A stretch of 64,000 nucleotides of DNA from a phage. This document shows, one piece after another, positions 597 to 52,993 of this stretch. The DNA is taken from the sequence record PZ154897.1; one strand, 5' to 3'. The translations under genes and the position numbers were made by a program. Under the pieces are notes generated by a model. It saw only the letters and a program-made list of their open reading frames with translations, was not told the origin of the DNA and did no database searches. The stretch's first letter is position 1; each line of letters begins with the position of its first letter.

Positions 597-3293
597 TCAG
601 CCAAACAGGAAGTCTAACGAAGCTTTTTCCTCATAGTCCATACCTGCCGATTCACACATGCCCGCAAGCGGTTTAACAAACGATTTTTGGAACAAAGTTG
701 AGTAGTCAATCCAAGACAGTACATCAGAACGAATTTCTTTTGGAAGTTCCGTACCCGACGGCCAAGCAATGCACTTATCACCAAATGGATTTCCTTCACG
801 TAATGGAAGAACCATTACCTTATTTCCATCCAAAATTGGAGCTACACCTAAACCATTAACAGCTCGACGATAAGTTAGCACCCCACGAATGTGGAACGGG
901 CATTTAAATCCTGGCCAACCTTTATCATCATATTTCGCTATATCGTTCGCAGTTTTTACTTCAGCAATAACTTTATAGTCAAGTTGACGATATTCTTTCT
1001 CAAAGTTCTTGTAGTATTCTTGGACAGACTCTTCACCTTCCTGAAGAATACGACGAATACTTTCTTCGAGAGCTTCTTGTACTGCTTTTGGTGTTGAACT
1101 CTGCTGAGTTTCCATACCCATGATTTTTAGATGTGGTTCAGCAAATCGTTTATCTTCCATATCATAAACGTTCAGAGCATAACGCTTTTTCGCTTTCCAA
1201 AATCCACCAACACCCTTTGAACCAAGTGGAGGGCAAGAAATAGCTTCACGGTCCATATGCATCAGATGCTCGCGGTTATTCATATAATCACATAACTCAC
1301 GATATGCAACATCAATCATAGGTTCCATCTTTTTCTTACCAAACTGATTCATGAATTCAACTAAATCGTTCTGCTCTTTGAATCGGTCAAGACCAACTTT
1401 TTCAACAACTTTATCTACGCAAACATATACCGAATCAGTATCACCTGCTGCGATGAAATCTTCACCATTAGTTCCACACACTTTATTCAGATACTCATTA
1501 ATTTTACGAGCAATCCACTGAATACCGACTTGACCGAAAATTGTGATAGCAGTAGCATTTCGCAAATCATAGTAACGGAAATGAATATTACCAAGAGCAC
1601 CATAAAGACTGTTAATAAGAATTTTACGGTTCAGTTGATTTGTGTTAGCAAGTGTAGCCGCTTTTTCACATTCTTCAATCAGACTATTGAGAACGGATTC
1701 GGTGTAATTCGATAGTTCATTTAAGAAATCATCATTGAACTTAACATATCGTTCAACTTCTGGTTTAGTTGAACAAGACCCTGCGCCTTTCATAATAATC
1801 TTTTTAATAGCTTCGGCATTCATTTCTTCAGCGAACATTTTCTTTTTCCAATCTTTACGCTGGAAAAATACTTTAGCGATTTCCTTTGGAATGATACCTT
1901 CTTGATGCTTATCATACATCCATCCATTCGGAGAGCAAGAATATTCATCACTCGGTTTAGGAGCTGTTCCTGCAATATATTCATGAATTGGATGAACTTT
2001 AAACTGCCCACGAATAGTCTCAGGACTAATGTTAACCTGACGAATAATGCTAGGATACAGAGACGTCAAGTCAAAACTCATAATATATCGACGAGCAATT
2101 GGTTTAGGTTCAAACACAAATGCACCCGGAAAACTCTGTTTAACGTGCGAACCCTGTTGAGGAATAACCTTATGTTCACCTTTCAATGAGTTAAAAATAA
2201 TAGCATCCCAAGTTTTAATAGGACTCATTACACCAGAAAAAGGCATTTTAGCGTAATAAGACATACTTAAAACTAGATCGATAAACCCACGAATTTTATC
2301 AATTGCTTGAACTGATTCTACGTCAATGATGTTATAACTAATGTATCGTTGATGATTAGTCTCACGAAGTTTATTAATAGGACCATCGTACGGCAATTTA
2401 CCTTTTTTGGTTTCATGTTGAGCAACTGATTCCAAAGAGAACGATGGCAAATTAGTAAATGCGAACTTCTTGTATAAATCTAAATAATCAAGAATAGATA
2501 CGCCATCAATAGAATAAATTTCTTTGCTACCGTACATATTTTGAATTAGTTTAGATTTTACTCGACCGATTGGAGAGAAACGTTTCATACTGCGTTCGCC
2601 GAGAACCATTTTAACACGGTTCATGATATACGGAACGTCAAACCCCTCAATATTCCAACCAGTAAAAATAGCAGGTCGTTTCTGTTCCCAGAGATTGATA
2701 TATTCCATGAGCATATCACGCTCATTATCGAATGGCATATAAATTACTCGGTCAAGAATTTCTTGAGGAACTTCATCACCACCTTCACAGTCAAGCTTAG
2801 CAGCTAACTTTGCATCCCATTTTGATACTGAACCGTACATTGAATTCAACAAATCAAAGACGTAAAAACGGTCGTCAATTGAATCATAATGAGTGATAGC
2901 ATCAATTTCATATTCTGCTTTCATTGGGTCAGGAAATTTATCGCCAGTAACCTCAATGTCACAATTAGCTACACGAACAAATTTTCGGTCATAAACAATT
3001 TCTGAACCATACGTATCACTGATATAAGCGAGTTTAAAATCGTTCATACCGAGAGCTTCGAGACCGATGTCTTCCATTCGCTTCATCCAGTCTCGTGCAT
3101 CTTTCATTGATGGAAATTTTTGAGGAGCGCAATTTTTACCATAAATGTCTTTGTATTTTGACTCTTCCTTACAATGCCTAAACATAGTCGGAAGATATTC
3201 TACTTCGCGAGTACGTTCCTTTCCATTTTCATCAATATAACGTTCAACAATATTATTTCCGACTGTTTCGATAGAGATATAAAATTCTTTCAT
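597..3293 (-). CDS. 43: DNA polymerase gp43 (family B, with 3'-5' exonuclease)
   Basis: 898-aa ORF; N-terminus MKEFYISIETVGNNIVERYIDENGKERTREVEYLPTMF matches T4 gp43 from memory; size identical to T4 gp43. Confidence 0.97.
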   Translation of the reverse strand: MKEFYISIETVGNNIVERYIDENGKERTREVEYLPTMFRHCKEESKYKDIYGKNCAPQKFPSMKDARDWMKRMEDIGLEALGMNDFKLAYISDTYGSEIVYDRKFVRVANCDIEVTGDKFPDPMKAEYEIDAITHYDSIDDRFYVFDLLNSMYGSVSKWDAKLAAKLDCEGGDEVPQEILDRVIYMPFDNERDMLMEYINLWEQKRPAIFTGWNIEGFDVPYIMNRVKMVLGERSMKRFSPIGRVKSKLIQNMYGSKEIYSIDGVSILDYLDLYKKFAFTNLPSFSLESVAQHETKKGKLPYDGPINKLRETNHQRYISYNIIDVESVQAIDKIRGFIDLVLSMSYYAKMPFSGVMSPIKTWDAIIFNSLKGEHKVIPQQGSHVKQSFPGAFVFEPKPIARRYIMSFDLTSLYPSIIRQVNISPETIRGQFKVHPIHEYIAGTAPKPSDEYSCSPNGWMYDKHQEGIIPKEIAKVFFQRKDWKKKMFAEEMNAEAIKKIIMKGAGSCSTKPEVERYVKFNDDFLNELSNYTESVLNSLIEECEKAATLANTNQLNRKILINSLYGALGNIHFRYYDLRNATAITIFGQVGIQWIARKINEYLNKVCGTNGEDFIAAGDTDSVYVCVDKVVEKVGLDRFKEQNDLVEFMNQFGKKKMEPMIDVAYRELCDYMNNREHLMHMDREAISCPPLGSKGVGGFWKAKKRYALNVYDMEDKRFAEPHLKIMGMETQQSSTPKAVQEALEESIRRILQEGEESVQEYYKNFEKEYRQLDYKVIAEVKTANDIAKYDDKGWPGFKCPFHIRGVLTYRRAVNGLGVAPILDGNKVMVLPLREGNPFGDKCIAWPSGTELPKEIRSDVLSWIDYSTLFQKSFVKPLAGMCESAGMDYEEKASLDFLFG

Positions 3294-3964: not shown

Positions 3965-4528
3965 TTACCATTCCAATGCTAGTTTTTTGAGTTGTTTCTG
4001 TTCTTTTACGTTCTTAGTCACTTCTTTCAAAAAATCATCCGTGACTAATCCTTTTAGTTCTTTTAATACTAAAGGTAGTTTTCCGTTTTTAGTAAGAATT
4101 GATTTATAGTTAATTGCATCATTTGTATTAACTTGATACCGTTTAGCAAGTAACTTAATAATCAATACTTCGGTGGAATCTTCAACCAGTTTTGCCCATT
4201 TACCATATCTTTTACCCCGAGGAACAGCAGCCATCAGATAATTAAAATGAGCTTCATCACTTAAACCTGATCCAATTAAATTCATAGCATATACAGCTGG
4301 CATGCACTCTGGAAATTGTGATAATGCATTCTCAACCATGTATTTTGAATAATCTTTTTGAGCAATAGAGCATTTAGTTTTATTATTAATAGCTCCAATT
4401 ATTTCAAAAAACTCATTTTCAGCTTTTTCTTTAAAAGAATCAGCAGCGGATTGGACAGCTGTCCAATCTTTAGAATACCAAGCAACTTGATGCTCGTTTA
4501 ATTGAATATCATCTTCAAATAAGCTCAT
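3965..4528 (-). CDS. 62: clamp-loader small subunit gp62
   Basis: 187 aa from [22 protein letters not shown]...; adjacent to gp44; ORF-track N-terminal extension trimmed. Confidence 0.9.
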
Positions 4529-5540: not shown

Positions 5541-6227
5541 TTAAAAATCGTGGGTAGAATCAGCTTCAAGAGCTACTACATAATTCGCATGTTCACCTTC
5601 AAATTTAGCAGCGCCTTGTTTACCTTTTGCCCAGAGAAGAAGTTTATAATTTCCTGGTTGCATTTTCATATTTGCCATATTGATAATGAAATTAAATGTA
5701 TTTTCACCATCATAATCACCAAGAGTCAAAGAATATTTAACACGGGTCAAAGCAGAATCTTCTACTTTGTTAAAACCGTTAATTACAATTTTACCTTCTT
5801 TTACTGTGATAGCAATTGTATCAATCTGCAGACCGCGAGATACACGCAACAGCTGTTGAAGGTCTTCAGCTTTAATTTCAGTAACAACAGATGCTACCGG
5901 GAATGGAATTGGTTTATTAGGAGCAACTACTGTACTCGGATCGGCTGCTGGCCAAAAAATTGTTGAGCGAGCATCAGCAATTTTAATATTACCATCTTCT
6001 GACTGGGAAATTTCTGCATCATCATTAACTAGAGACAGAATACCGAGAAAACCGTTCAAATCGTAAATCGCTACATCAAAATCAATAACGTCAGAAATAT
6101 TTGCTTCCGCATAAGTGGTACCATTAACCGCGCGAGTCATAATAAATTGACCGGATTTAAGCATAATACCGGAGTTAATAGTAGCGAAATTTTTCAAAAT
6201 ATTCAGCGTATCTTTAGACAGTTTCAT
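5541..6227 (-). CDS. 45: sliding clamp gp45
   Basis: 228-aa ORF MKLSKDTLNILKNFATINSGIMLKSGQFIMTRAVNGTTYAEANISDVIDFDVAIYDLNGF...; size/position as T4 gp45. Confidence 0.95.
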   Translation of the reverse strand: MKLSKDTLNILKNFATINSGIMLKSGQFIMTRAVNGTTYAEANISDVIDFDVAIYDLNGFLGILSLVNDDAEISQSEDGNIKIADARSTIFWPAADPSTVVAPNKPIPFPVASVVTEIKAEDLQQLLRVSRGLQIDTIAITVKEGKIVINGFNKVEDSALTRVKYSLTLGDYDGENTFNFIINMANMKMQPGNYKLLLWAKGKQGAAKFEGEHANYVVALEADSTHDF

Positions 6228-6282: not shown

Positions 6283-6672
6283 TTAACGATTAAAATCAGC
6301 CGCAATTGTTTCCGCAACAAGTTGAGCAGCAACAATTAGACGTTCATCTGCATTACCGCAATATTCATCTTCAAGGCGTTCACCACATGAAGTCATAATA
6401 AATTTAGCACCGGCGTTTAGGGATTCTGTAGTATGTTTGCGCATTAGTTCAATCCATTTATTACTTACTTCACGATCGATAGCTTCATAATACGCATGAC
6501 GAGCAGGTGCAGATTTAATTTTGTTCTGAATAACTTCCATTGCGTTATCAGAAAGAGACAAAACCCATGCTCGACGAATTTTATTTTGGTTTTGTGGATT
6601 TGAATCAGAACGCACGTGTTTTGGCTGAATATCTTTTACATCAACAGTATAATTCACAGTAATTTTAGTCAT
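6283..6672 (-). CDS. rpbA: RNA polymerase-binding protein RpbA
   Basis: 129-aa ORF immediately downstream of gene 45; synteny and size as T4 rpbA. Confidence 0.7.
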
Positions 6673-6681
6673 AATACACCT

Positions 6682-6873
6682 TTAGTCATAATAATCAGTA
6701 ACAGTCCAAGCTTCATTTCTGTTGGACATTATTTTCGTATATTCTGATTTAAATGCATTCTTAAGCATAGATTCAGTAACTATATGCTCTTCATTAGAAA
6801 AATTATTTCTCAGAATATATCGTTTTATTTCAGGAATAGTTAATAGATGCTGTCCAGTTGAATATTCTGCCAC
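6682..6873 (-). CDS. 45.2: small conserved protein (45.2-like)
   Basis: 63-aa ORF in the 45.2 position between rpbA and 46. Confidence 0.55.
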   Translation of the reverse strand: MAEYSTGQHLLTIPEIKRYILRNNFSNEEHIVTESMLKNAFKSEYTKIMSNRNEAWTVTDYYD

Positions 6874-6924
6874 AGTTCCTCCGTATAAATATGTTTATCA
6901 CTCGCTGTATCAAAAGGATATGTT

Positions 6925-7641
6925 ATGAATTATAAACTAATTTATGAAAAGTTAATCTCTAATGCTAAATCTCGAAAACTTGATTGCTATACTGAATCTC
7001 ATCACATTATACCACGCTGTTTAAACGGTAGTGATGATGCTTCAAACTTAGTAGATTTAACGCCAGAAGAGCACTATGTAGCTCATCAACTTTTAGTAAA
7101 AATTTATCCTTCTGAACCAAAATTAGTCTATGCTGCTAACATGATGACAGTTTCTACGAAATACGCTAAACGTAACAATAAAACTTTCGGCTGGATTCGT
7201 CGTAAACTCTGGGAAATAGAAAAGAATAAAGAGTTCTCCAAAGAGACACGAAAGAAAATGTCCGACGCAGTAGCTAATAAAGCAAGACTAACTTGTCCAC
7301 ATTGCGGTAAGTCTGGATTAAGCGGGAATATGAATCGATGGCATTTTGATAACTGCCCAAATCATCCCAATCCTAAAGTTAGACCGCCAATGTCTAAAGA
7401 ACACAGAAATAATATCTCAAACGGGCTTAAAGCAATCGTTCTTGAAGAAACATCCTGCGAATTCTGCGGAATGATAGGCAAGAAATGCGTTATCGCAGCG
7501 CATAGAAATTTCTGCAAGAAAAATCCAAATGGACGCAAGAAAACTGAAAAGACTGGTACTTGCGTCCATTGTGGTAAAGTTACCACTTTCGGAAATTTAT
7601 CAAGATGGCATAATGATAATTGTAAATATAAACCTAGCTAA
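6925..7641 (+). CDS. HNH homing endonuclease (mob-type) with three C-terminal Zn-finger repeats
   Basis: 238 aa; motif [30 protein letters not shown]; three repeats of C-x-H-C-G...W-H/N-x-D/N-N-C; opposite strand to all neighbours; paralog of 51510..52169. Confidence 0.8.
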   Translation: MNYKLIYEKLISNAKSRKLDCYTESHHIIPRCLNGSDDASNLVDLTPEEHYVAHQLLVKIYPSEPKLVYAANMMTVSTKYAKRNNKTFGWIRRKLWEIEKNKEFSKETRKKMSDAVANKARLTCPHCGKSGLSGNMNRWHFDNCPNHPNPKVRPPMSKEHRNNISNGLKAIVLEETSCEFCGMIGKKCVIAAHRNFCKKNPNGRKKTEKTGTCVHCGKVTTFGNLSRWHNDNCKYKPS

Positions 7642-9322
7642 TCTTAGCTAAACTAAATCTACCAACTTTTTCCATTTGAATGTGCTGACCATATTCCTGT
7701 GGGTCATGGTCTTTATGCGAAATTATGAAGAAGTTGGTATCCTTCAAACCATCTAAAATTTTAGCCACATTTTTAATACCTTCAGCATCAAATGCACCGT
7801 CATACACTTCATCAAGAAATAAACAACTTATTTTAACACCTGAAACTTTTTCAGCAATATCACGCCAAGTAAATAAAAGAGCAATATCAATTCGTGCTTT
7901 TTCACCTTGACTAAATGAAGCATAACTAAAATCTTCACGACCACGGGATTTAATTGTCTCATTAAATTCTTCATCTAATGTAAACACATAATCCGCTTCC
8001 ATTATTTTAAGATAATGGTTAATCTGCTTATTAAATAATGGAATGTACTTTTTAATAATAGCACCTTTAATACCAGAATCTTTGAGCATATCAGTCAAAA
8101 TTCCTCGGTGGTATTTTTCCATTACTAAATTAGTTTTTGTCTTAACAATTTTATCAAGTTCTTCTTGAAGCAGTGCTATTTCATCAGCATGGTCAATAAA
8201 CTCAGAAGATGCTTTTTCTATAGCCGCTTTAACCTTTTTAGCTTTATCTACCGTCGTGATTAGAGATTGCTTTTTATTGCGAATATCATTTGCCAACGTC
8301 TGTTGGGTTTTAATATTATCTCGGTATTCATCAACGAGAACTTTTAAATTATCACGATGTGTTGAAAGCTGTTCAAACGAATGCGTGCATTCAGAAACTT
8401 TATCTTTAATTTTAGAAACAACTTTATCACCGGAACTTAATTGTGACAAACAGGTTGGACATAATCCACCTTCGTGATACATATTAATGACTTTATTATA
8501 CGAGTCAATTTTTGATTTAATTAAAAATGCTTCTTGACCGATTTTATTAAATGCATCAGTCGGGTCTTCATCCAAAACAATATTAACTAATCTTTCATTA
8601 GCTTCTTCTATTTCCGATTTTAGCGTTCTAGCTTCTTTTGCCAAATCATCATACATATTCTGCAGACGAGTAAGGTTATCACCAGTTAATTTTTTCTGGC
8701 GTTCAACGTTATCATTATATATTTTAATTTGTTGGATAATACTATCTTTTTTAACATCAAGCACTTGGTTTTGTGAATTTAATTCACGTATTAGTGCTTT
8801 ATTAAGCTTATCCATTTCAGCTAATGTTCCTACCTCAAGCAGGTCTTCCACAAGCTTTCTTCGCGCAGGGGTCGACAAACCCATGAAAGGGGTATACCCT
8901 GCTGTACCAAGGACAACAATCTGCTTGAAACTGGCATATGACATTCCGATAAGCTGTTCAAATTCTGCTTGGAAATCTTTACTGCTGGCAGATTCATTAA
9001 GACGTGTACCGTTAACGGTGATTTCGAAAACGTTTGGTTTTTGTCCTCTTTTGATATAGTACTTTTTCTCATCATATTCCATCCACAGTTCAACTAAAAG
9101 TTCTTTCTTATTTGTGCTGTTTATTAATTGACCTTTCTTTACATCACGGAATGGCTTGCCAAAAAGCCCAAATGTGATGGCTTCTAACATAGTAGACTTA
9201 CCACCGCCATTTCGTCCAGTAATAAGAGTTTTTTGAACCTTATCTAATTGAATGTCAACTCCATTTTGACCAACTGACATTATATTTTTATATTTTACTC
9301 TATTAAGTTTAAATGATTTCAT
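7634..9322 (-). CDS. 46: recombination endonuclease subunit gp46 (SbcC/Rad50-like ATPase)
   Basis: 562 aa; Walker A GRNGGGKST; long coiled-coil middle; CPTC zinc hook; signature SQGE and D-loop FLDEV. Confidence 0.95.
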   Translation of the reverse strand: MKSFKLNRVKYKNIMSVGQNGVDIQLDKVQKTLITGRNGGGKSTMLEAITFGLFGKPFRDVKKGQLINSTNKKELLVELWMEYDEKKYYIKRGQKPNVFEITVNGTRLNESASSKDFQAEFEQLIGMSYASFKQIVVLGTAGYTPFMGLSTPARRKLVEDLLEVGTLAEMDKLNKALIRELNSQNQVLDVKKDSIIQQIKIYNDNVERQKKLTGDNLTRLQNMYDDLAKEARTLKSEIEEANERLVNIVLDEDPTDAFNKIGQEAFLIKSKIDSYNKVINMYHEGGLCPTCLSQLSSGDKVVSKIKDKVSECTHSFEQLSTHRDNLKVLVDEYRDNIKTQQTLANDIRNKKQSLITTVDKAKKVKAAIEKASSEFIDHADEIALLQEELDKIVKTKTNLVMEKYHRGILTDMLKDSGIKGAIIKKYIPLFNKQINHYLKIMEADYVFTLDEEFNETIKSRGREDFSYASFSQGEKARIDIALLFTWRDIAEKVSGVKISCLFLDEVYDGAFDAEGIKNVAKILDGLKDTNFFIISHKDHDPQEYGQHIQMEKVGRFSLAKIS

Positions 9323-9337
9323 TTTGTATCCAATTGT

Positions 9338-10192
9338 TCACAATGAAGAAAATTCTTTAACTAAAGCCTGTAATGAAGCCTCTATTGGATATCCATTCTT
9401 AACTAACATTTTCCTAAACATCACATGTTTAGGACGATTATATGATATCCACAATTCATACAATTTATCTTTATTATCCCAATGATAGCCTTTTCGTCGA
9501 GATGCTATATGAGCTTTTCTAATCTCCGGATTTTTCCAACTAGCAGCTACTGAATTTGATATAGCTATTTTATATTCAGGTTTTGATAAAGCAGCGCGAA
9601 CAGCCCTTTGGTGTTTAATTTTATTTTCTTCGTTATTAAACCATTCCCTTGAAGCCATTGAAATTTTTTGTTTTGTTTTAAAATTATTTAATCTTTCTTT
9701 GTTATCTTTTCTATTTTTTGCTACTGAAAAATATTTTAATGCCCTTTCTCTAGCAGCATTTCTATTTTGCGGATTTGAATAATACTGTTGAAGCCTTTTT
9801 GATATTGTGTCACTTACATCTTGTTTTATAAAACTATATTCAGCAGCTATTAAATCAACTTCGGCTAAAGATAAATTTTTATATGTTTTTCCTGACATCA
9901 TTCTATTTAAAGCATTTAGCATTTTTCCATTTTTACCTTTTGCTAATAAGAAATGTGCTTTGAAATGATTGAAATGACTTAAATTAACTAAATTCCATGT
10001 AGATTTTAAATATTCAGGAAATATTGATTTAGGAAGCACGTGATGTGCTTCCGTTTTACCTGGAGTTTTAACAGTTGAATTCATAGAAATAAAATTAATG
10101 TAAGACTTGGCGTCTTCTTCGCTCAACACTAATTTTTCAACTAATTCCTTTATTAAAAATTCATCATTAATATCAAGTTTAAAATTCTTCAC
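9338..10192 (-). CDS. HNH-family homing-endonuclease-like protein (AT-rich insert between 46 and 47)
   Basis: 284 aa; EAHHVLPKS...NLVNLSHFNHFKAH resembles the HNH motif of the mob-type ORFs; basic Lys/Asn-rich C-terminus. Confidence 0.5.
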   Translation of the reverse strand: MKNFKLDINDEFLIKELVEKLVLSEEDAKSYINFISMNSTVKTPGKTEAHHVLPKSIFPEYLKSTWNLVNLSHFNHFKAHFLLAKGKNGKMLNALNRMMSGKTYKNLSLAEVDLIAAEYSFIKQDVSDTISKRLQQYYSNPQNRNAARERALKYFSVAKNRKDNKERLNNFKTKQKISMASREWFNNEENKIKHQRAVRAALSKPEYKIAISNSVAASWKNPEIRKAHIASRRKGYHWDNKDKLYELWISYNRPKHVMFRKMLVKNGYPIEASLQALVKEFSSL

Positions 10193-11833: not shown

Positions 11834-13034
11834 ATTTTGTAATAATGTCAAACTGTTCTTTAAAGCAGAAGCTTGAATCTTGATGCTGATACAAAAATTC
11901 ATAAGCTTTTTCACGTTCACGGTCATAAAGAGCTCGGTCAGATGACAGTTCTTTAATACGTTCAAATGTTGATTCCATGTCATTTTCATCAAACCAAACG
12001 ATACCGCTATCGTGTGAAATTAATGGAGTATTATCAACACGGAATTTTAAATTTTCGCCAGTACATTTCCAAAATACCGGAATTGTTCCACATGCACCAA
12101 GCTCGAGATGAGTATATTCTAAAGAACGTTGTAGATATTTTTTGTCCAACTTACTCAGCTGATAACCAAATCCGGATTTACTCATGCGTTCAAGCATTTC
12201 GCTATTTACATAACGGTCGAGAATTTGCGTCGGCAAATTAGGAGCAATTTTAATTTGGTCTACTTGGTGAAGACGATAATACTCGTATGGAATTCCTTTT
12301 TCTTTAATAGGAATGAACGCTGGAGAACGTTCCAGACCTTCCATAATAGTACTTAGTCCTGCAGGTTTAAGATGTTTTTCATGAAAATCAAACATCTGAT
12401 AAAAACCTTTCCATGTAGTCGTACGACCAATCCAACGGTTGATATTCATGTTAATTTCAGAAACATCTTTCCAGTAGGTTGACCGAACCTTCGCAATATC
12501 CATAGGAGGCTGAAAGTTATATACTGCCGGTGCTTCTTCAATATCATCAAACAGAGAAACTGTTTCAGGATACCATTCTTTCATCAGAACTTTATTAAAA
12601 TCACCATTATCAGAATGGCTAAAAATAACATCAGCTCGACGAACAGTTTCTTCTAATCCCAAATTTCGGCGCAAAGAAAGAGAAGAATGGTCATGTTGAT
12701 AAACTACAACACGAACAGAAGGTTTAATGTTATCAATAATTTTTTTATAGTTATTAATAGTGTCTTCTTCAACCGAAGTAGCAGGAACTGAATTGATAAT
12801 TAGAATATCACAATCATTTACCAGCTTAAGTGTTTTATCGTATTCTTTTGCCAATAAAACTGGAATTGAAAATGATTTATAATCATGCGCGCAATTACGA
12901 GTAAATGATTTATCTTTAGCATAAACCAAAGTCACTTCATGACCATTTTTAATAAACCAATCACGTTGCTCGAGTGAGAATTTTGTTACACCACAACCTT
13001 CAAGACCTCGAGCCATAAAAATACATACTTTCAT
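11832..13034 (-). CDS. a-gt: DNA alpha-glucosyltransferase
   Basis: 400 aa; MKVCIFMARGLEGCGVTKFSLEQRDWFIKNGHEVTLVYAKDKSF... matches T4 a-gt from memory. Confidence 0.9.
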   Translation of the reverse strand: MKVCIFMARGLEGCGVTKFSLEQRDWFIKNGHEVTLVYAKDKSFTRNCAHDYKSFSIPVLLAKEYDKTLKLVNDCDILIINSVPATSVEEDTINNYKKIIDNIKPSVRVVVYQHDHSSLSLRRNLGLEETVRRADVIFSHSDNGDFNKVLMKEWYPETVSLFDDIEEAPAVYNFQPPMDIAKVRSTYWKDVSEINMNINRWIGRTTTWKGFYQMFDFHEKHLKPAGLSTIMEGLERSPAFIPIKEKGIPYEYYRLHQVDQIKIAPNLPTQILDRYVNSEMLERMSKSGFGYQLSKLDKKYLQRSLEYTHLELGACGTIPVFWKCTGENLKFRVDNTPLISHDSGIVWFDENDMESTFERIKELSSDRALYDREREKAYEFLYQHQDSSFCFKEQFDIITK

Positions 13035-46397: not shown

Positions 46398-46474
<77 letters not shown>

Positions 46475-46477
46475 TAA

Positions 46478-47143
46478 TTAAAATTTCATTTTTCGACCTT
46501 TAAACCATCCTTCTGGAATTGGGTCAGTTTTCTTAATACGTTTAGAAACTTTTTCATCTAATGAATGAATCCACATCATACCAAATTGGGAATTCTTTTC
46601 GCCCTGTTGGTGTTTATTTCTGGCGTGAGATTCTTTCATTTTATTAATAGTTTCAGGAGTATGGGTCTTACCCAAGAAAGATTTAATATTTAAAAATTTC
46701 TCTCTATACTTAGGATTATCCCAAAGCTGTTTAAACCTTTCTGAACCCATTTTACGATATTTTTCTTTAAGGTCTGGGTCGTTCTCAAATCTGGTTTTAA
46801 AAGCAGCAGCCCCTTTTAAGGAAGCTTCTTTCTTTTTATCCAAATATTCTTTAGTGTTTAAATGGTCCCAACCACCTTCACCACCTAATTTCAAATTATA
46901 AACATCAGGGCGCTTTAAAAACTCTTCAGTCACAATATTCTTTTCTGACTCAAACATAGAGGTTTTATCGTCAAAGAACTCTAATATTTCTTTAGAGAAA
47001 TTTTCTATACCATACTTGTCTTGGGCTCTTTTTAATAATTTACCAGAACCCATATATCCATCATCTAAATTTTCGGTAGAATGAGCGCCTATATAGATTT
47101 TATTATTAATTTTATTTGTTATTTTATAAGTGTAATGGAACAT
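46478..47143 (-). CDS. segB: GIY-YIG homing endonuclease in the tRNA cluster (segB-like)
   Basis: 221 aa; YTYKITNKINNKIYIGAHST...YNLKLGGEGG; paralog of 17840..18670; sits between tRNA subclusters as T4 segB does. Confidence 0.8.
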   Translation of the reverse strand: MFHYTYKITNKINNKIYIGAHSTENLDDGYMGSGKLLKRAQDKYGIENFSKEILEFFDDKTSMFESEKNIVTEEFLKRPDVYNLKLGGEGGWDHLNTKEYLDKKKEASLKGAAAFKTRFENDPDLKEKYRKMGSERFKQLWDNPKYREKFLNIKSFLGKTHTPETINKMKESHARNKHQQGEKNSQFGMMWIHSLDEKVSKRIKKTDPIPEGWFKGRKMKF

Positions 47144-47184
47144 AAATATCTCCTATTTCTAAGAGTATTTATGTTCCCAAAATA

Positions 47185-47256
47185 TGGCCCTGGGTGGAAT
47201 TGAACCACCATCTGGCGATTATGAGTCGCTTGCTTGAACCTTCCAGCTACAGGGCC
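47185..47256 (-). tRNA. tRNA-Ile (anticodon CAU, AUA-decoding type)
   Basis: hand-folded; anticodon loop CUCAUAA; T-arm GGTGG-TTCAATT-CCACC; acceptor GGCCCTG/CAGGGCC. Confidence 0.75.
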
Positions 47257-47263
47257 TTGATAT

Positions 47264-47335
47264 GCTGATTGACGGAATCGAACCGCCGACATCCTCATTA
47301 CAAGTGAGGTGCTCTACCTACTGAGCTAAATCAGC
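47264..47335 (-). tRNA. tRNA-Thr (anticodon UGU)
   Basis: hand-folded; anticodon arm CCTCA-CTTGTAA-TGAGG; acceptor GCTGATT/AATCAGC. Confidence 0.8.
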
Positions 47336-47342
47336 GAAATTA

Positions 47343-47429
47343 CGGAGGCGATAGGATTTGAACCTATGAGTCACCGGAGCGACTGCCGGTTTTCAAGACC
47401 GGTGCATTAAACCACTCTGCCACGCCTCC
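47343..47429 (-). tRNA. tRNA-Ser (anticodon UGA), long variable arm
   Basis: hand-folded; anticodon arm CCGGT-CTTGAAA-ACCGG; acceptor GGAGGCG/CGCCTCC; 87 nt. Confidence 0.8.
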
Positions 47430-47431
47430 AG

Positions 47432-47505
47432 TCTCCGCGGCAGGATTTGAACCTGTGACATTCTGCTCCCAAAGCAGACGCTCTACCAAACTGAGCTACA
47501 CGGAG
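47432..47505 (-). tRNA. tRNA-Pro (anticodon UGG)
   Basis: hand-folded; anticodon arm TCTGC-TTTGGGA-GCAGA; 2-nt spacer to tRNA-Ser (dimeric precursor arrangement). Confidence 0.8.
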
Positions 47506-47517
47506 TAAATTAAATTT

Positions 47518-47589
<72 letters not shown>

Positions 47590-47595
47590 AAACTT

Positions 47596-47682
47596 TGGTA
47601 CGAGAAGTGGGACTCGAACCCACAAGGAAATCATTCCGCAGCATTTTAAGTGCTGTGCCTTTACCAATTTGACCATTCTCGC
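47596..47682 (-). tRNA. tRNA-Leu (anticodon UAA), long variable arm, CCA encoded
   Basis: hand-folded; anticodon arm CAGCA-CTTAAAA-TGCTG; T-arm GTGGG-TTCGAGT-CCCAC. Confidence 0.8.
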
Positions 47683-47683
47683 G

Positions 47684-47755
47684 CGGGGAATAAAGGACTC
47701 GAACCTTTGCATCTAGCAGTCAAAGTGCTATGCCTTACCAACTTGGCTAATTCCC
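47684..47755 (-). tRNA. tRNA-Gln (anticodon UUG)
   Basis: hand-folded; anticodon arm TAGCA-CTTTGAC-TGCTA; T-arm AAAGG-TTCGAGT-CCTTT; weak 1:72 pair. Confidence 0.75.
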
Positions 47756-47853
47756 AATTATTAACAAAGGCTCTCTAACAAGAACCCTTGATGATAGAGG
47801 GTATTAATCAGTGCGATATGAGTTAATAATAACAAATAATTCTTAAAGCATAT

Positions 47854-50110: not shown

Positions 50111-50823
50111 TATAGTACCTTTAGTGTATTTTTAATTTTAGAAAAAAGTTCTTCAAGAGAACCATCGTTTGTAATTACTAAATCGCCATCACGAATTGGC
50201 AATCCAGCTTCTGTAATATGTGTATCATTGGATTTTTGACCAGGACGAACTACATGAATTACTGTAGCACCCATCGCCCTAGCCGCATCCATTTCATGAT
50301 CTTGACGAGTATCAGGAACGATATAATAATCATAACCTGAGTTAAATTTATCAAGATAATCTAAAGCAAATAATTTTACCCAATACATGCGGTCGAAGTT
50401 ATTAACAATCAAATCCGTACCTAGGGCTTGCATCAGACGACGGACTGACCATTGATCTTCAATATTATTTATAACGTCAGCAATCTTGTTAAATGCTACG
50501 AAATTAACTGCGTCATCAAAAACAAACACACCTTTAATTGGGCTTTTACTATTAAGATAGCAAAATGCTTGTTCCATAATCGTGATTACTTCTGATTTAG
50601 TCAGATTTAAATTAGTCTCACGATCATAGTCAATTCCTTCAAACTCTCTACGAGTTAAGCAAGGATAGTCAGTGTTTGCTGCAAATACACCCCATGCATA
50701 AGCCAATGCATCTTTAATAGGACCAGCAAGTTGATATTTAACTGCAGAATAATTATTCATGATAAAATCTGCAGTAGTATCTTTTCCACTACGCTTTACA
50801 CCACTTAAAAAGATTAGTTTCAT
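50110..50823 (-). CDS. 1: deoxynucleoside monophosphate kinase gp1
   Basis: 237 aa; MKLIFLSGVKRSGKDTTADFIM P-loop. Confidence 0.95.
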
Positions 50824-51509: not shown

Positions 51510-52169
51510 TTAATTTATTAGACTTCTTAAACGAGCAGAAGTCATAAATGGAAATTTTTCTAAAGTTGGCTTTCGCCAATATCTTGGATGACAAGTTGAT
51601 TTAAAATCAAGAACAATTTTCTTTGCTTCATCAATAGTGCTAACTCCAAAGTTATCTAACATTATTTTCTTTTCTTTTTCCCACCGTTTATTAGCTAAAG
51701 CAGATTGAAGCTTTTTGTTTTTAAATGTATCATTTTTTCTAGAATGAGTTGTGCCTTGTGTCGGACTCCATCCTCTTCCTAAAATAAATCCCTCAGGAAT
51801 TATATCTCCATCATGCAATTTTATACATCTTTTACCATTATTATAATATTTTCGTCCAGTTTGTGTATTTGAAATATTATTTGCATGTTTTCTTTTTAAC
51901 CAACCATAAACTTTATTATTTCTCCTAACATATTTAGTTGAAACCGTCATTTTTATGGCCGCATAAGATAATTTTAAAGAATTTGGGTGTATTTTTACTA
52001 ATAGTTGATGTGCAACATAATGCTCTTCTGGAGTTAAATCAACCAAGTTAGAAGCATCATTACTACCGCCTAAACATTTCGGAATAATATGATGTCTTTC
52101 TTTATATCCAGTAAGGGCTCTATTGCGAGCCCTATCAATTAGTGAATTATAAATTTTTTCATAATTCAT
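51510..52169 (-). CDS. HNH homing endonuclease (mob-type) between genes 3 and 2
   Basis: 219 aa from [10 protein letters not shown]; [35 protein letters not shown] nearly identical to motif in 6925..7641; ATGA overlap with gene 2 stop. Confidence 0.8.
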
Positions 52170-52993
52170 CGTACATTGCTCCAAACTTTGTTTGCAGAGA
52201 AACGTTTTCCTTTGGAGTAGAAGCTTTGGAGTGGCATCAACACAACGTTCGCCCAGTCTTTCGGGGCGATTTCAACAAGGCTACCCATAATATTACCAGG
52301 TATATATGCCTTAATCATTTGGTCTGCACCCCTAAATCCTTTCACTTGACTCCAATCAATTTTTAATTTCGTTTTATTAGTAATAGTAGGTGTATTTGAA
52401 TATTGCTTTAAAAGCTCTTCTAGAAATTGCTGACGAGCTTTAGGTGGAATATAGTGCAAGTTCAATCCATACATTAAATTATGTTTACCTAAACCGAGGT
52501 AAATTATCAAAGGAAATTTATCCCAATAAGGAAGAGTTTCCTTGTGTTTAGCATCATAAGCAAAAGCATATATTCGTCCCGGCTGCGGGCGAACAACTTT
52601 ATGTCCTTTTACTTGCTTAATAGTTTCAGCAAACCACTTTCTGGTTTTATTATTAATTGCTGCGCCTTCATTACGAATTTTATCACGCAATGTTTGTCTG
52701 AATGAATTTATCATAAGCAGTTGTCTTTCTTGCTTATTGAGTTTATTCATTGGTTTTGATTCAAGCTTTTGAATCTTTTCAGCCGTTTTAATTCCTGAAG
52801 CATATTTTGACATTGCCGAAGTAAACGTAGAGTATTTGATTCCTCTTTCTTCAGCAAATTGCTTTCCTGTCATTCCTTTTGCTTTGGCCTTTTTGTATTC
52901 AAGACCTATCTGAATCCATTTCTTTTCATTTAATGATTGCTTAACCTTTGGAACTTGGGGAGTGCTTTCATTAATTATTTGAAAAATAGCCAT
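52166..52993 (-). CDS. 2: DNA end-protector protein gp2
   Basis: 275-aa ORF; position between 3 and 4; size as T4 gp2. Confidence 0.85.

Follow-up and report, generated by a model that had tools for sequence, protein, structure and literature searches.

An inverted Mob-type HNH endonuclease gene next to gene 46 of a T-even phage and its relation to a second HNH gene between genes 3 and 2

Two genes for HNH endonucleases lie within conserved gene clusters of the T-even phage genome studied here, one of them inverted between genes 45.2 and 46 and the other between genes 3 and 2. How did these genes come to occupy their places, and how are they related to each other? The original prediction regarded them as the result of a recent duplication and transposition-like spread of one mob-type element into two conserved operons. 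We analyzed a stretch of 64,000 nucleotides of the phage (sequence record PZ154897.1), which is called the window below, and we designate the two genes HNH gene 1 and HNH gene 2. T-even phages are known to carry free-standing genes for HNH homing endonucleases, and the regulation and modularity of these genes have been reviewed (PMC2988022).

The region around HNH gene 1 matches 715 records of T-even phages, about 500 of them with at least 90% identity. The closest matches are RB32/RB51-like Tequatrovirus genomes (97–99% identity). The gene order is T4-like at both sites: 44, 45, rpbA, 45.2, inverted HNH gene 1 and 46 on the first side, and 57A, 1, 3, HNH gene 2 as an extra gene, 2 and 4, followed by 53 and 5, on the second side. 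HNH gene 1 (RB32ORF054w type) starts with ATG, occupies positions 6925..7641 of the plus strand and encodes 238 aa. Its left neighbor is gene 45.2 (6682..6873, minus strand), which is identical to that of T4 as far as the insertion. The host gene adjoining the insertion is gene 46 (7634..9322, minus strand), which encodes an SbcC/Rad50-like recombination nuclease subunit. The predicted antiparallel overlap with the stop of gene 46 was confirmed. It comprises 8 nt (7634..7641), with the TAA codon of HNH gene 1 at 7639–7641 against the TAG codon of gene 46 at 7636–7634. Yersinia phage MHG19 has the same antiparallel arrangement of the two stops with an overlap of 4 nt. HNH gene 1 had also been said to stand alone on the plus strand throughout the first 53 kb. 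This holds for ORFs of at least 90 aa that start with ATG. Besides HNH gene 1 there are five plus-strand ORFs of such length, including two short ones at 1905..2189 and 11966..12241; the three that were inspected, starting at 5589, 39444 and 45617, lie antisense inside minus-strand ORFs.

HNH gene 2 (RB32ORF146c type, 219 aa) is located at 51510..52169 on the minus strand, between gene 3 and gene 2, and its proposed presence within the 3-2-4 cluster is real. Neither site contains an HNH gene in T4, as the original prediction had stated. The T4 spacers are empty at both sites (55 bp between 45.2 and 46, 106 bp between 2 and 3), and relative to T4 the insertions at 45.2|46 and 2|3 are precise. 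A third HNH ORF of 284 aa, MobD-like and absent from T4, lies directly upstream of gene 46 (9338..10192, minus strand); in RB51 it is shortened, and the match covers only 177 aa. All three HNH ORFs of the window belong to phrog_655 (E=1e-68, 9e-59 and 8e-45). An Rfam search of the whole window gave tRNAs as the only families, with no match to a group I intron. Since HNH gene 1 is intergenic and no group I intron was matched in the window, we treat it as a free-standing homing endonuclease gene.

The N-terminal part of the HNH gene 1 protein is a Mob-type HNH nuclease domain (aa 1–95, 6925..7209, plus strand). Its HNH motif begins with HHIIP. The residues H26, H27, N41, H50 and H54 do not vary among 18 orthologs with 44–64% identity to HNH gene 1, and neither does any of the 12 zinc ligands. 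The I-TevIII equivalents of the HNH residues, H26, H27, N39 and H48, were shown to be catalytic (PMC1865063). The protein was assigned to phrog_655 “homing endonuclease” (E=1.3e-68). A BLASTP comparison with T4 gave MobB (E=5e-29), MobE (3e-28), MobD (6e-23) and MobC (1e-21), and the first 120 aa or so are 42–53% identical to the N-terminal regions of MobB, MobD and MobE and 37% identical to that of MobC. Among curated profiles, both Pfam matches are below the threshold (HNH, 16.9 bits against a cut-off of 21.4; HNH_5, 17.8 against 27.5), NCBIfam gave only a weak match to the HNH region of IscB, and a sequence search of PDB gave no informative relatives.

The C-terminal half had been described as three tandem zinc-finger repeats of the form CxHCG...W[HN]x[DN]NC. 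Three CCHC units are indeed present, but only fingers 1 and 3 follow this consensus; finger 2 is of another subtype (CEFCGMIGK...HRNFCKKNPN). Finger 1 (aa 124–144, 7294..7356, CX2CX12HX3C, with invariant ligands) is of the I-TevIII second-finger type. Finger 2 (aa 178–197, 7456..7515, CX2CX11HX3C) is of the I-TevIII first-finger type (CxFCGxIGK...CKxNPN), and finger 3 (aa 213–233, 7561..7623, CX2CX12HX3C) is again of the second-finger type; all three are on the plus strand. According to BLASTP, finger 1 is 50% identical to residues 64–91 of T4 I-TevIII over 28 aa (E=1.5e-5), and fingers 2 and 3 are collinear with both fingers of T4 I-TevIII (38% over 63 aa, E=2e-7). The pattern C..C.{10,14}H...C was found in the window ORFs of at least 80 aa in these three units only. 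The isolated C-terminal half matches two I-TevIII PHROGs, phrog_27406 (E=4.7e-11) and phrog_12324 (E=3.8e-9), and it has no significant match in Pfam, with only sub-threshold hits in Pfam and NCBIfam. Between the nuclease domain and the fingers lies a NUMOD3-like helix (aa 102–116, 7228..7272, plus strand; Pfam NUMOD3 E=0.0036, below the threshold).

An AlphaFold (AF2) model of the protein was built from the ortholog alignment, with a mean pLDDT of 86. The model predicts a strand-strand-helix unit at the HNH motif (24–27/42–45/47–60) and a further one per finger. Two helices are predicted in addition, 106–117, where the weak NUMOD3 match lies, and 158–170. Searching for similar folds with the complete model yielded nothing informative. 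In I-TevIII of phage RB3 each CX2CX12-13HX3C motif binds one zinc and is needed for DNA binding (PMC1865063). The three CCHC fingers of HNH gene 1 most likely bind the target DNA. The domain matches to T4 Mob proteins, I-TevIII and the PHROGs thus characterize HNH gene 1 as a Mob-type nuclease joined to a three-finger array of the I-TevIII type. Like HNH gene 1, I-TevIII (from the nrdB intron of RB3; truncated in T4) combines an HNH nuclease with C-terminal tandem CX2CX12-13HX3C fingers. However, it is intron-encoded and has two fingers, whereas HNH gene 1 is free-standing and has three. Moreover, the I-TevIII family phrog_12324 matches only the zinc-finger part, while the N-terminal domain belongs to phrog_655. 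Because HNH gene 1 is not intron-encoded and matches the I-TevIII PHROG only with its zinc-finger half, it should not be regarded as a strict I-TevIII.

HNH gene 1 has expression signals of its own on the plus strand. The Shine-Dalgarno sequence AAGGA (6914..6918), 6 nt before the ATG, is kept in MHG19 and in locus L021. A T4-type late promoter box TATAAATA (6884..6891) lies 34 nt upstream of the ATG and is the single occurrence of this sequence on the plus strand within the first 53 kb. The orthologs in RB51, MHG19 and L021 are preceded by this box as well, equally far from the start and with a similar leader. In the latter two, the box, the distance and much of the leader are kept despite a coding identity of only about 66%. 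The box is thus a putative late promoter of HNH gene 1. Since HNH gene 1 is inverted, it cannot be read from early or middle transcripts that cover the 46-45 region. Judging from the sequence, synthesis of the protein is most likely confined to the late stage and driven by the TATAAATA promoter of the gene.

In T4, the expression of endonuclease genes is typically delayed by late or middle promoters together with RNA hairpins (PMC2988022). A leader hairpin that would hide the ribosome-binding site, analogous to those of I-TevI, segB and mobE, was sought by folding positions 6892–6945; the result (-5.9 kcal/mol, z=-0.64) was not significant. A scan for sigma-70 promoters and terminators around HNH gene 1 gave nothing above chance. 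Most Mob genes ride on upstream transcripts (PMC2988022), unlike the inverted HNH gene 1 with its putative late promoter. A precedent for antisense orientation to the neighboring genes is SegD of T4 (PMC2988022).

HNH gene 2 has the orientation of its neighbors. Its start overlaps the stop of gene 2 in an ATGA sequence (52166..52169, minus strand), which suggests coupled translation, and this overlap places it in the late 2-3 transcript. HNH gene 2 lacks a separate promoter and appears to be co-transcribed, with coupled translation, in the late operon. Its C-terminal half (126 aa) gave no family match in Pfam, NCBIfam and PHROG searches. T4 MobE is 62% identical to HNH gene 2 over 63 aa.

Both genes are distributed patchily among close relatives and always occupy the same site, as is typical of Mob-type genes. 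Using a query that spans both junctions, we found HNH gene 1 in 59–60 of about 504 Tequatrovirus records, in each case with full coverage in one piece, with both junctions spanned and once per genome. HNH gene 2 is full-length in 37 of 504 records at the same site, and in the others the flanks are joined, i.e., the site is empty; CT01 contains a partial locus of the HNH gene 2 type. The UFV series has only HNH gene 1, vB_EcoM_112 and Elenatom have only HNH gene 2, and RB32, RB33 and OES_C-2 have both. The two genes assort independently among phages. In IMG/VR, 30 of the 31 gp46 loci are not occupied by HNH gene 1 (one of these, L027, ends before the site). In MHG19 and in locus L021, which belong to other genera, orthologs with 63–64% amino acid identity occupy this site as well; they too are inverted and overlap the stop of gene 46. 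A single fixed site per carrier, shared in position and orientation by diverged orthologs, argues for site-specific homing rather than transposition. Homologs of HNH gene 2 that are similarly diverged also adjoin gene 2 in VR25, C6 and Gravdalen. The attribution of both genes to mob-type mobile HNH endonuclease genes inserted in conserved clusters is therefore upheld.

The sequences flanking the insertions are informative about the way in which the genes may move. As far as the insertion, the 45.2 side of the window shows 97–100% identity to T4. In gene 46, some 215–240 nt next to the insertion are only 72–85% identical per 60-nt block, and beyond them the identity returns to about 100%. The last 80 codons of gene 46 are 79% identical to T4 versus 97% in an upstream control segment. 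This divergent 3' tract (7634..7852, minus strand) is linked to HNH gene 1 and may be a co-converted or immunity segment. Across the phage collection the tract is bimodal: 60 records are at least 95% identical to it, none fall between 90% and 95%, and the rest are at about 81% or below. There are as many records with the carrier-type tract (60) as records carrying HNH gene 1. An independent pair from a genus other than that of the window repeats the observation. The carrier L021 and the non-carrier L023, whose gene 46 is 94% identical to that of L021 overall, share 41–47 of 60 positions per block in the last 240 nt and 56–60 of 60 elsewhere. In both carrier/non-carrier pairs, the tract of about 215–240 nt is 68–79% identical, and the rest of gene 46 as well as the 45.2 side is 97–100% identical.

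The dense mismatches begin in both pairs exactly at nt 1471 of gene 46 (window position 7852), bordering on the 3' side a block of 21 nt that is universally conserved and encodes FTWRDIA. The insertion also replaces the terminal codons of gene 46 (...VGRFSLAKIS in the window versus ...VGRFTVMV in T4). At the second site the insertion starts at the stop of gene 2 and alters the last codons of this gene. Beside this insertion, gene 2 diverges over a short patch near its 3' end (52198..52257, minus strand), where 51 of 60 positions agree with T4, against mostly 58–60 of 60 in the adjacent 60-nt blocks. A substitution at the tract boundary of gene 46 was tried as a marker of carriage and was rejected: EK versus S[IKR] is uncorrelated with carriage across genera, since SR is found in the carrier MHG19 and EK in several non-carriers. 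When carriers of different genera are compared, their gene 46 tracts show no clustering, the identity of 64–68% being at the background level. The cassette has therefore not moved recently between genera and is old within the neighborhood of each lineage.

The divergent tract and the altered gene ends fit intronless homing with co-conversion of the sequence between the cut and the insertion. The tract boundary in gene 46 may just as well reflect crossing over favored within the conserved block. The SegF and SegG enzymes of intronless homing reportedly cut the neighboring gene away from the insertion and co-convert the flank. The divergent tract of gene 46 resembles such co-conversion. SegD, SegF and SegG of T4 belong to the GIY-YIG nuclease family and occupy different sites. 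When a carrier and a relative without HNH gene 1 infect together, the HNH gene 1 enzyme would cut the empty allele of the relative within the 3' end of gene 46 or close to it. Repair by recombination with the carrier genome would then copy HNH gene 1 and about 215 nt of the divergent end of gene 46 into the recipient. HNH gene 2, which sits at the stop codon of gene 2 and would be expressed within the late 2-3 operon, presumably homes in a similar way to the gene 2/3 junction.

A more specific reading of the gene 46 side seems to us possible, though rather doubtful. It holds that the mobile unit is a cassette of HNH gene 1 and the last 215 nt or so of gene 46, and that the boundary at nt 1471 (window position 7852) marks the cleavage site by the block of the Rad50/SbcC signature motif. 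Together with the third HNH gene, at the opposite end of gene 46, the cassette would form a “homing-endonuclease island” by which T-even phages exchange whole gene 46. Antisense transcripts running into gene 46 late in infection might add a regulatory effect.

Co-option of the genes for something beyond selfish homing is an improbable alternative to homing. The functions considered were the exclusion or degradation of competitor genomes, work with the gp46/47 nuclease, and late antisense down-regulation of gene 46. Several observations agree with such a role. Gene 46 is bracketed by two HNH genes, and a late transcript of HNH gene 1 would run antisense into gene 46, no terminator having been found in 6500–8000. 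Besides, homing endonucleases with side benefits are documented (PMC13096335, PMC2790892). But the genes are absent from about 88–93% of close relatives, including T4, and thus no general function depends on them.

Slightly less credible still is the suggestion that the genes are decaying, inactive relics, like mobA and the truncated I-TevIII of T4, which are kept since genes 46 and 2 would have their ends damaged by a deletion. The insertions do supply the last codons and the stops of both gene 46 and gene 2, so clean loss of the HNH genes is constrained. Decayed copies also exist, such as the third HNH ORF in RB51, reduced to a 177-aa match, and the partial locus in CT01. However, the ORFs are intact in 59 records for HNH gene 1 and in 37 records for HNH gene 2. 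Comparison of HNH gene 1 of the window with the RB51 allele gave dS=0.18, dN=0.011 and dN/dS=0.06. Across genera dS is saturated, and nonetheless the catalytic and zinc-ligand residues are invariant in orthologs with 44–64% identity. This invariance and the low dN/dS argue against a decaying relic, as does the conservation of the promoter and the Shine-Dalgarno sequence.

The remaining question is the relation of the two HNH genes to each other. The proteins are alike only over the N-terminal 94 aa, where 69% of residues are identical, including a run of 23 identical amino acids. This is above the identity of the domain to T4 Mob proteins over a comparable length (37–53%) and, together with the empty sites in T4, it speaks for the proposed recent duplication. 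The nucleotide sequences of the 94-codon core tell otherwise. They are 67.7% identical over 282 nt, with only 55% identity at third codon positions; the longest exact word common to both is 11 nt, and the same codon is used at 39 of the 65 identical residues. These values indicate that the similarity of the cores is old and selectively maintained. In database searches, other HNH genes reach up to 88% and 81% nucleotide identity to the two cores over 66–130 nt, while the cores match each other at about 74% over 186 nt, i.e., below the best of those short matches. The C-terminal halves of HNH genes 1 and 2 are unrelated. Low nucleotide identity of the cores and unrelated C-terminal halves thus exclude a recent duplication or transposition as the origin of the pair in our judgement.

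A recent duplication of one mob-type element with transposition-like spread into two conserved operons is accordingly very improbable, since in addition to the diverged cores and unrelated C-terminal halves each gene has one fixed site in all carriers, diverged orthologs stand at the same sites in other genera, the two genes are carried independently across phages, and short stretches of each core are nearer in nucleotide sequence to other HNH genes in the databases than to each other. The prediction had itself named, as evidence to the contrary, the presence of both genes in all close relatives together with low mutual nucleotide identity; the low identity was found, and the presence in all relatives was not. 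HNH genes 1 and 2 are linked through an old common catalytic module, as the sequence comparison indicates, i.e., by domain shuffling. The shuffling of catalytic and DNA-binding modules is an accepted mode of evolution of these enzymes (PMC1865063; PMC10448857). Taken together, the window quite probably represents a Tequatrovirus (an RB32/RB51-like T-even phage) in which the Mob family of HNH homing endonucleases has three or more independent free-standing genes, of which HNH genes 1 and 2 share the old catalytic module.

Both HNH genes are of an already annotated kind that is ordinary for T-even phages. RB32ORF054w/RB51ORF057 and RB32ORF146c (DQ904452, FJ839693) are these two genes themselves, located at identical sites, with 95–99% nucleotide identity and no substantive difference. 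Their GenBank labels are [quoted passage not shown] and “not conserved from T4 position”. The RB32 and RB51 records provide annotation of these genes without domain analysis, promoter or target, and a literature search for ORF054w found no paper. The T4 genes mobB, mobC, mobD and mobE are the nearest characterized group. Like the genes of the window, they are free-standing between conserved genes and encode a homologous N-terminal HNH domain (33–62% identity, E=1e-17 to 1e-29), and MobE is a proven homing enzyme according to Table 1 of PMC2988022 and to PMC2790892. Unlike HNH gene 1, the T4 Mob sequences contain no CCHC zinc fingers, and their insertion sites are other than those found here. 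SegD of T4 is like HNH gene 1 in being antisense to its neighbors (PMC2988022).

The importance of these results is small beyond the correct identification of annotated but uncharacterized homing endonuclease genes of T-even phages. Nevertheless, they add three points to the knowledge of this family. A Mob nuclease with I-TevIII-type fingers in HNH gene 1 versus the same nuclease with an unrelated half in HNH gene 2 is a clear example of domain shuffling. The conserved putative late promoter on an inverted gene would be an alternative way to delay the expression of an endonuclease. Finally, the replicated signature that fits co-conversion, with a boundary common to two genera, may guide the search for the homing site within gene 46. 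Such details would be useful for the characterization of a new HNH homing enzyme of T-even phages or for explaining the mosaic boundaries of gene 46.

The divergent tract at the 3' end of gene 46 (7634..9322, minus strand), next to the homing endonuclease gene HNH gene 1 (6925..7641, plus strand), begins at the identical nucleotide in two independent pairs of carriers and non-carriers of the latter gene, which belong to different genera. The start lies at position 7852 of the window (nucleotide 1471 of gene 46) in the comparison with T4, and at position 4471 of the carrier locus L021 in the other pair. The tract is directly preceded by a universally conserved block, TTTACnTGGCGTGATATTGCT, that encodes FTWRDIA.

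Several observations concern other parts of the window. In phage gene 1 (dNMP kinase), which is otherwise nearly identical to that of T4, a block with 46 identical positions out of 60 includes 12 gap columns, i.e., a 12-nt gap relative to T4 at 50470..50517. Eight tRNA genes are encoded on the minus strand at 46401..47756. No group I intron was detected across the entire 64 kb window, whereas the corresponding stretch of T4 has the nrdD intron with I-TevII. The query comprising gene 2, the second HNH gene (51510..52169, minus strand) and gene 3 was only 42% covered in Shigella phage CT01 (OK018184.1, 74139..74473), in two pieces with 98.8% identity; judging by this alignment, CT01 may carry the second HNH gene in partly deleted form. 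The 142 kb record PV654520.1 (“Pseudomonas phage vB_PSGBLB0006”, host P. aeruginosa) shows 98–99% identity to this coliphage region, which suggests a mislabelled or contaminated record.

A third HNH ORF (284 aa; 9338..10192, minus strand; GTG start as listed) matches the homing endonuclease family phrog_655. Its nearest T4 relative is MobD (30% over 243 aa). Among the listed carriers of HNH gene 1, only about seven records reach into this ORF, i.e., four or five distinct phages after merging GenBank/RefSeq duplicates. In RB51 the match is only 177 aa long, and no CDS is annotated there. The ORF is located between gene 46 and 46.1, where T4 has no gene; gene 46 thus has an HNH gene on either side, which is the “HEG island” layout (PMC10448857).
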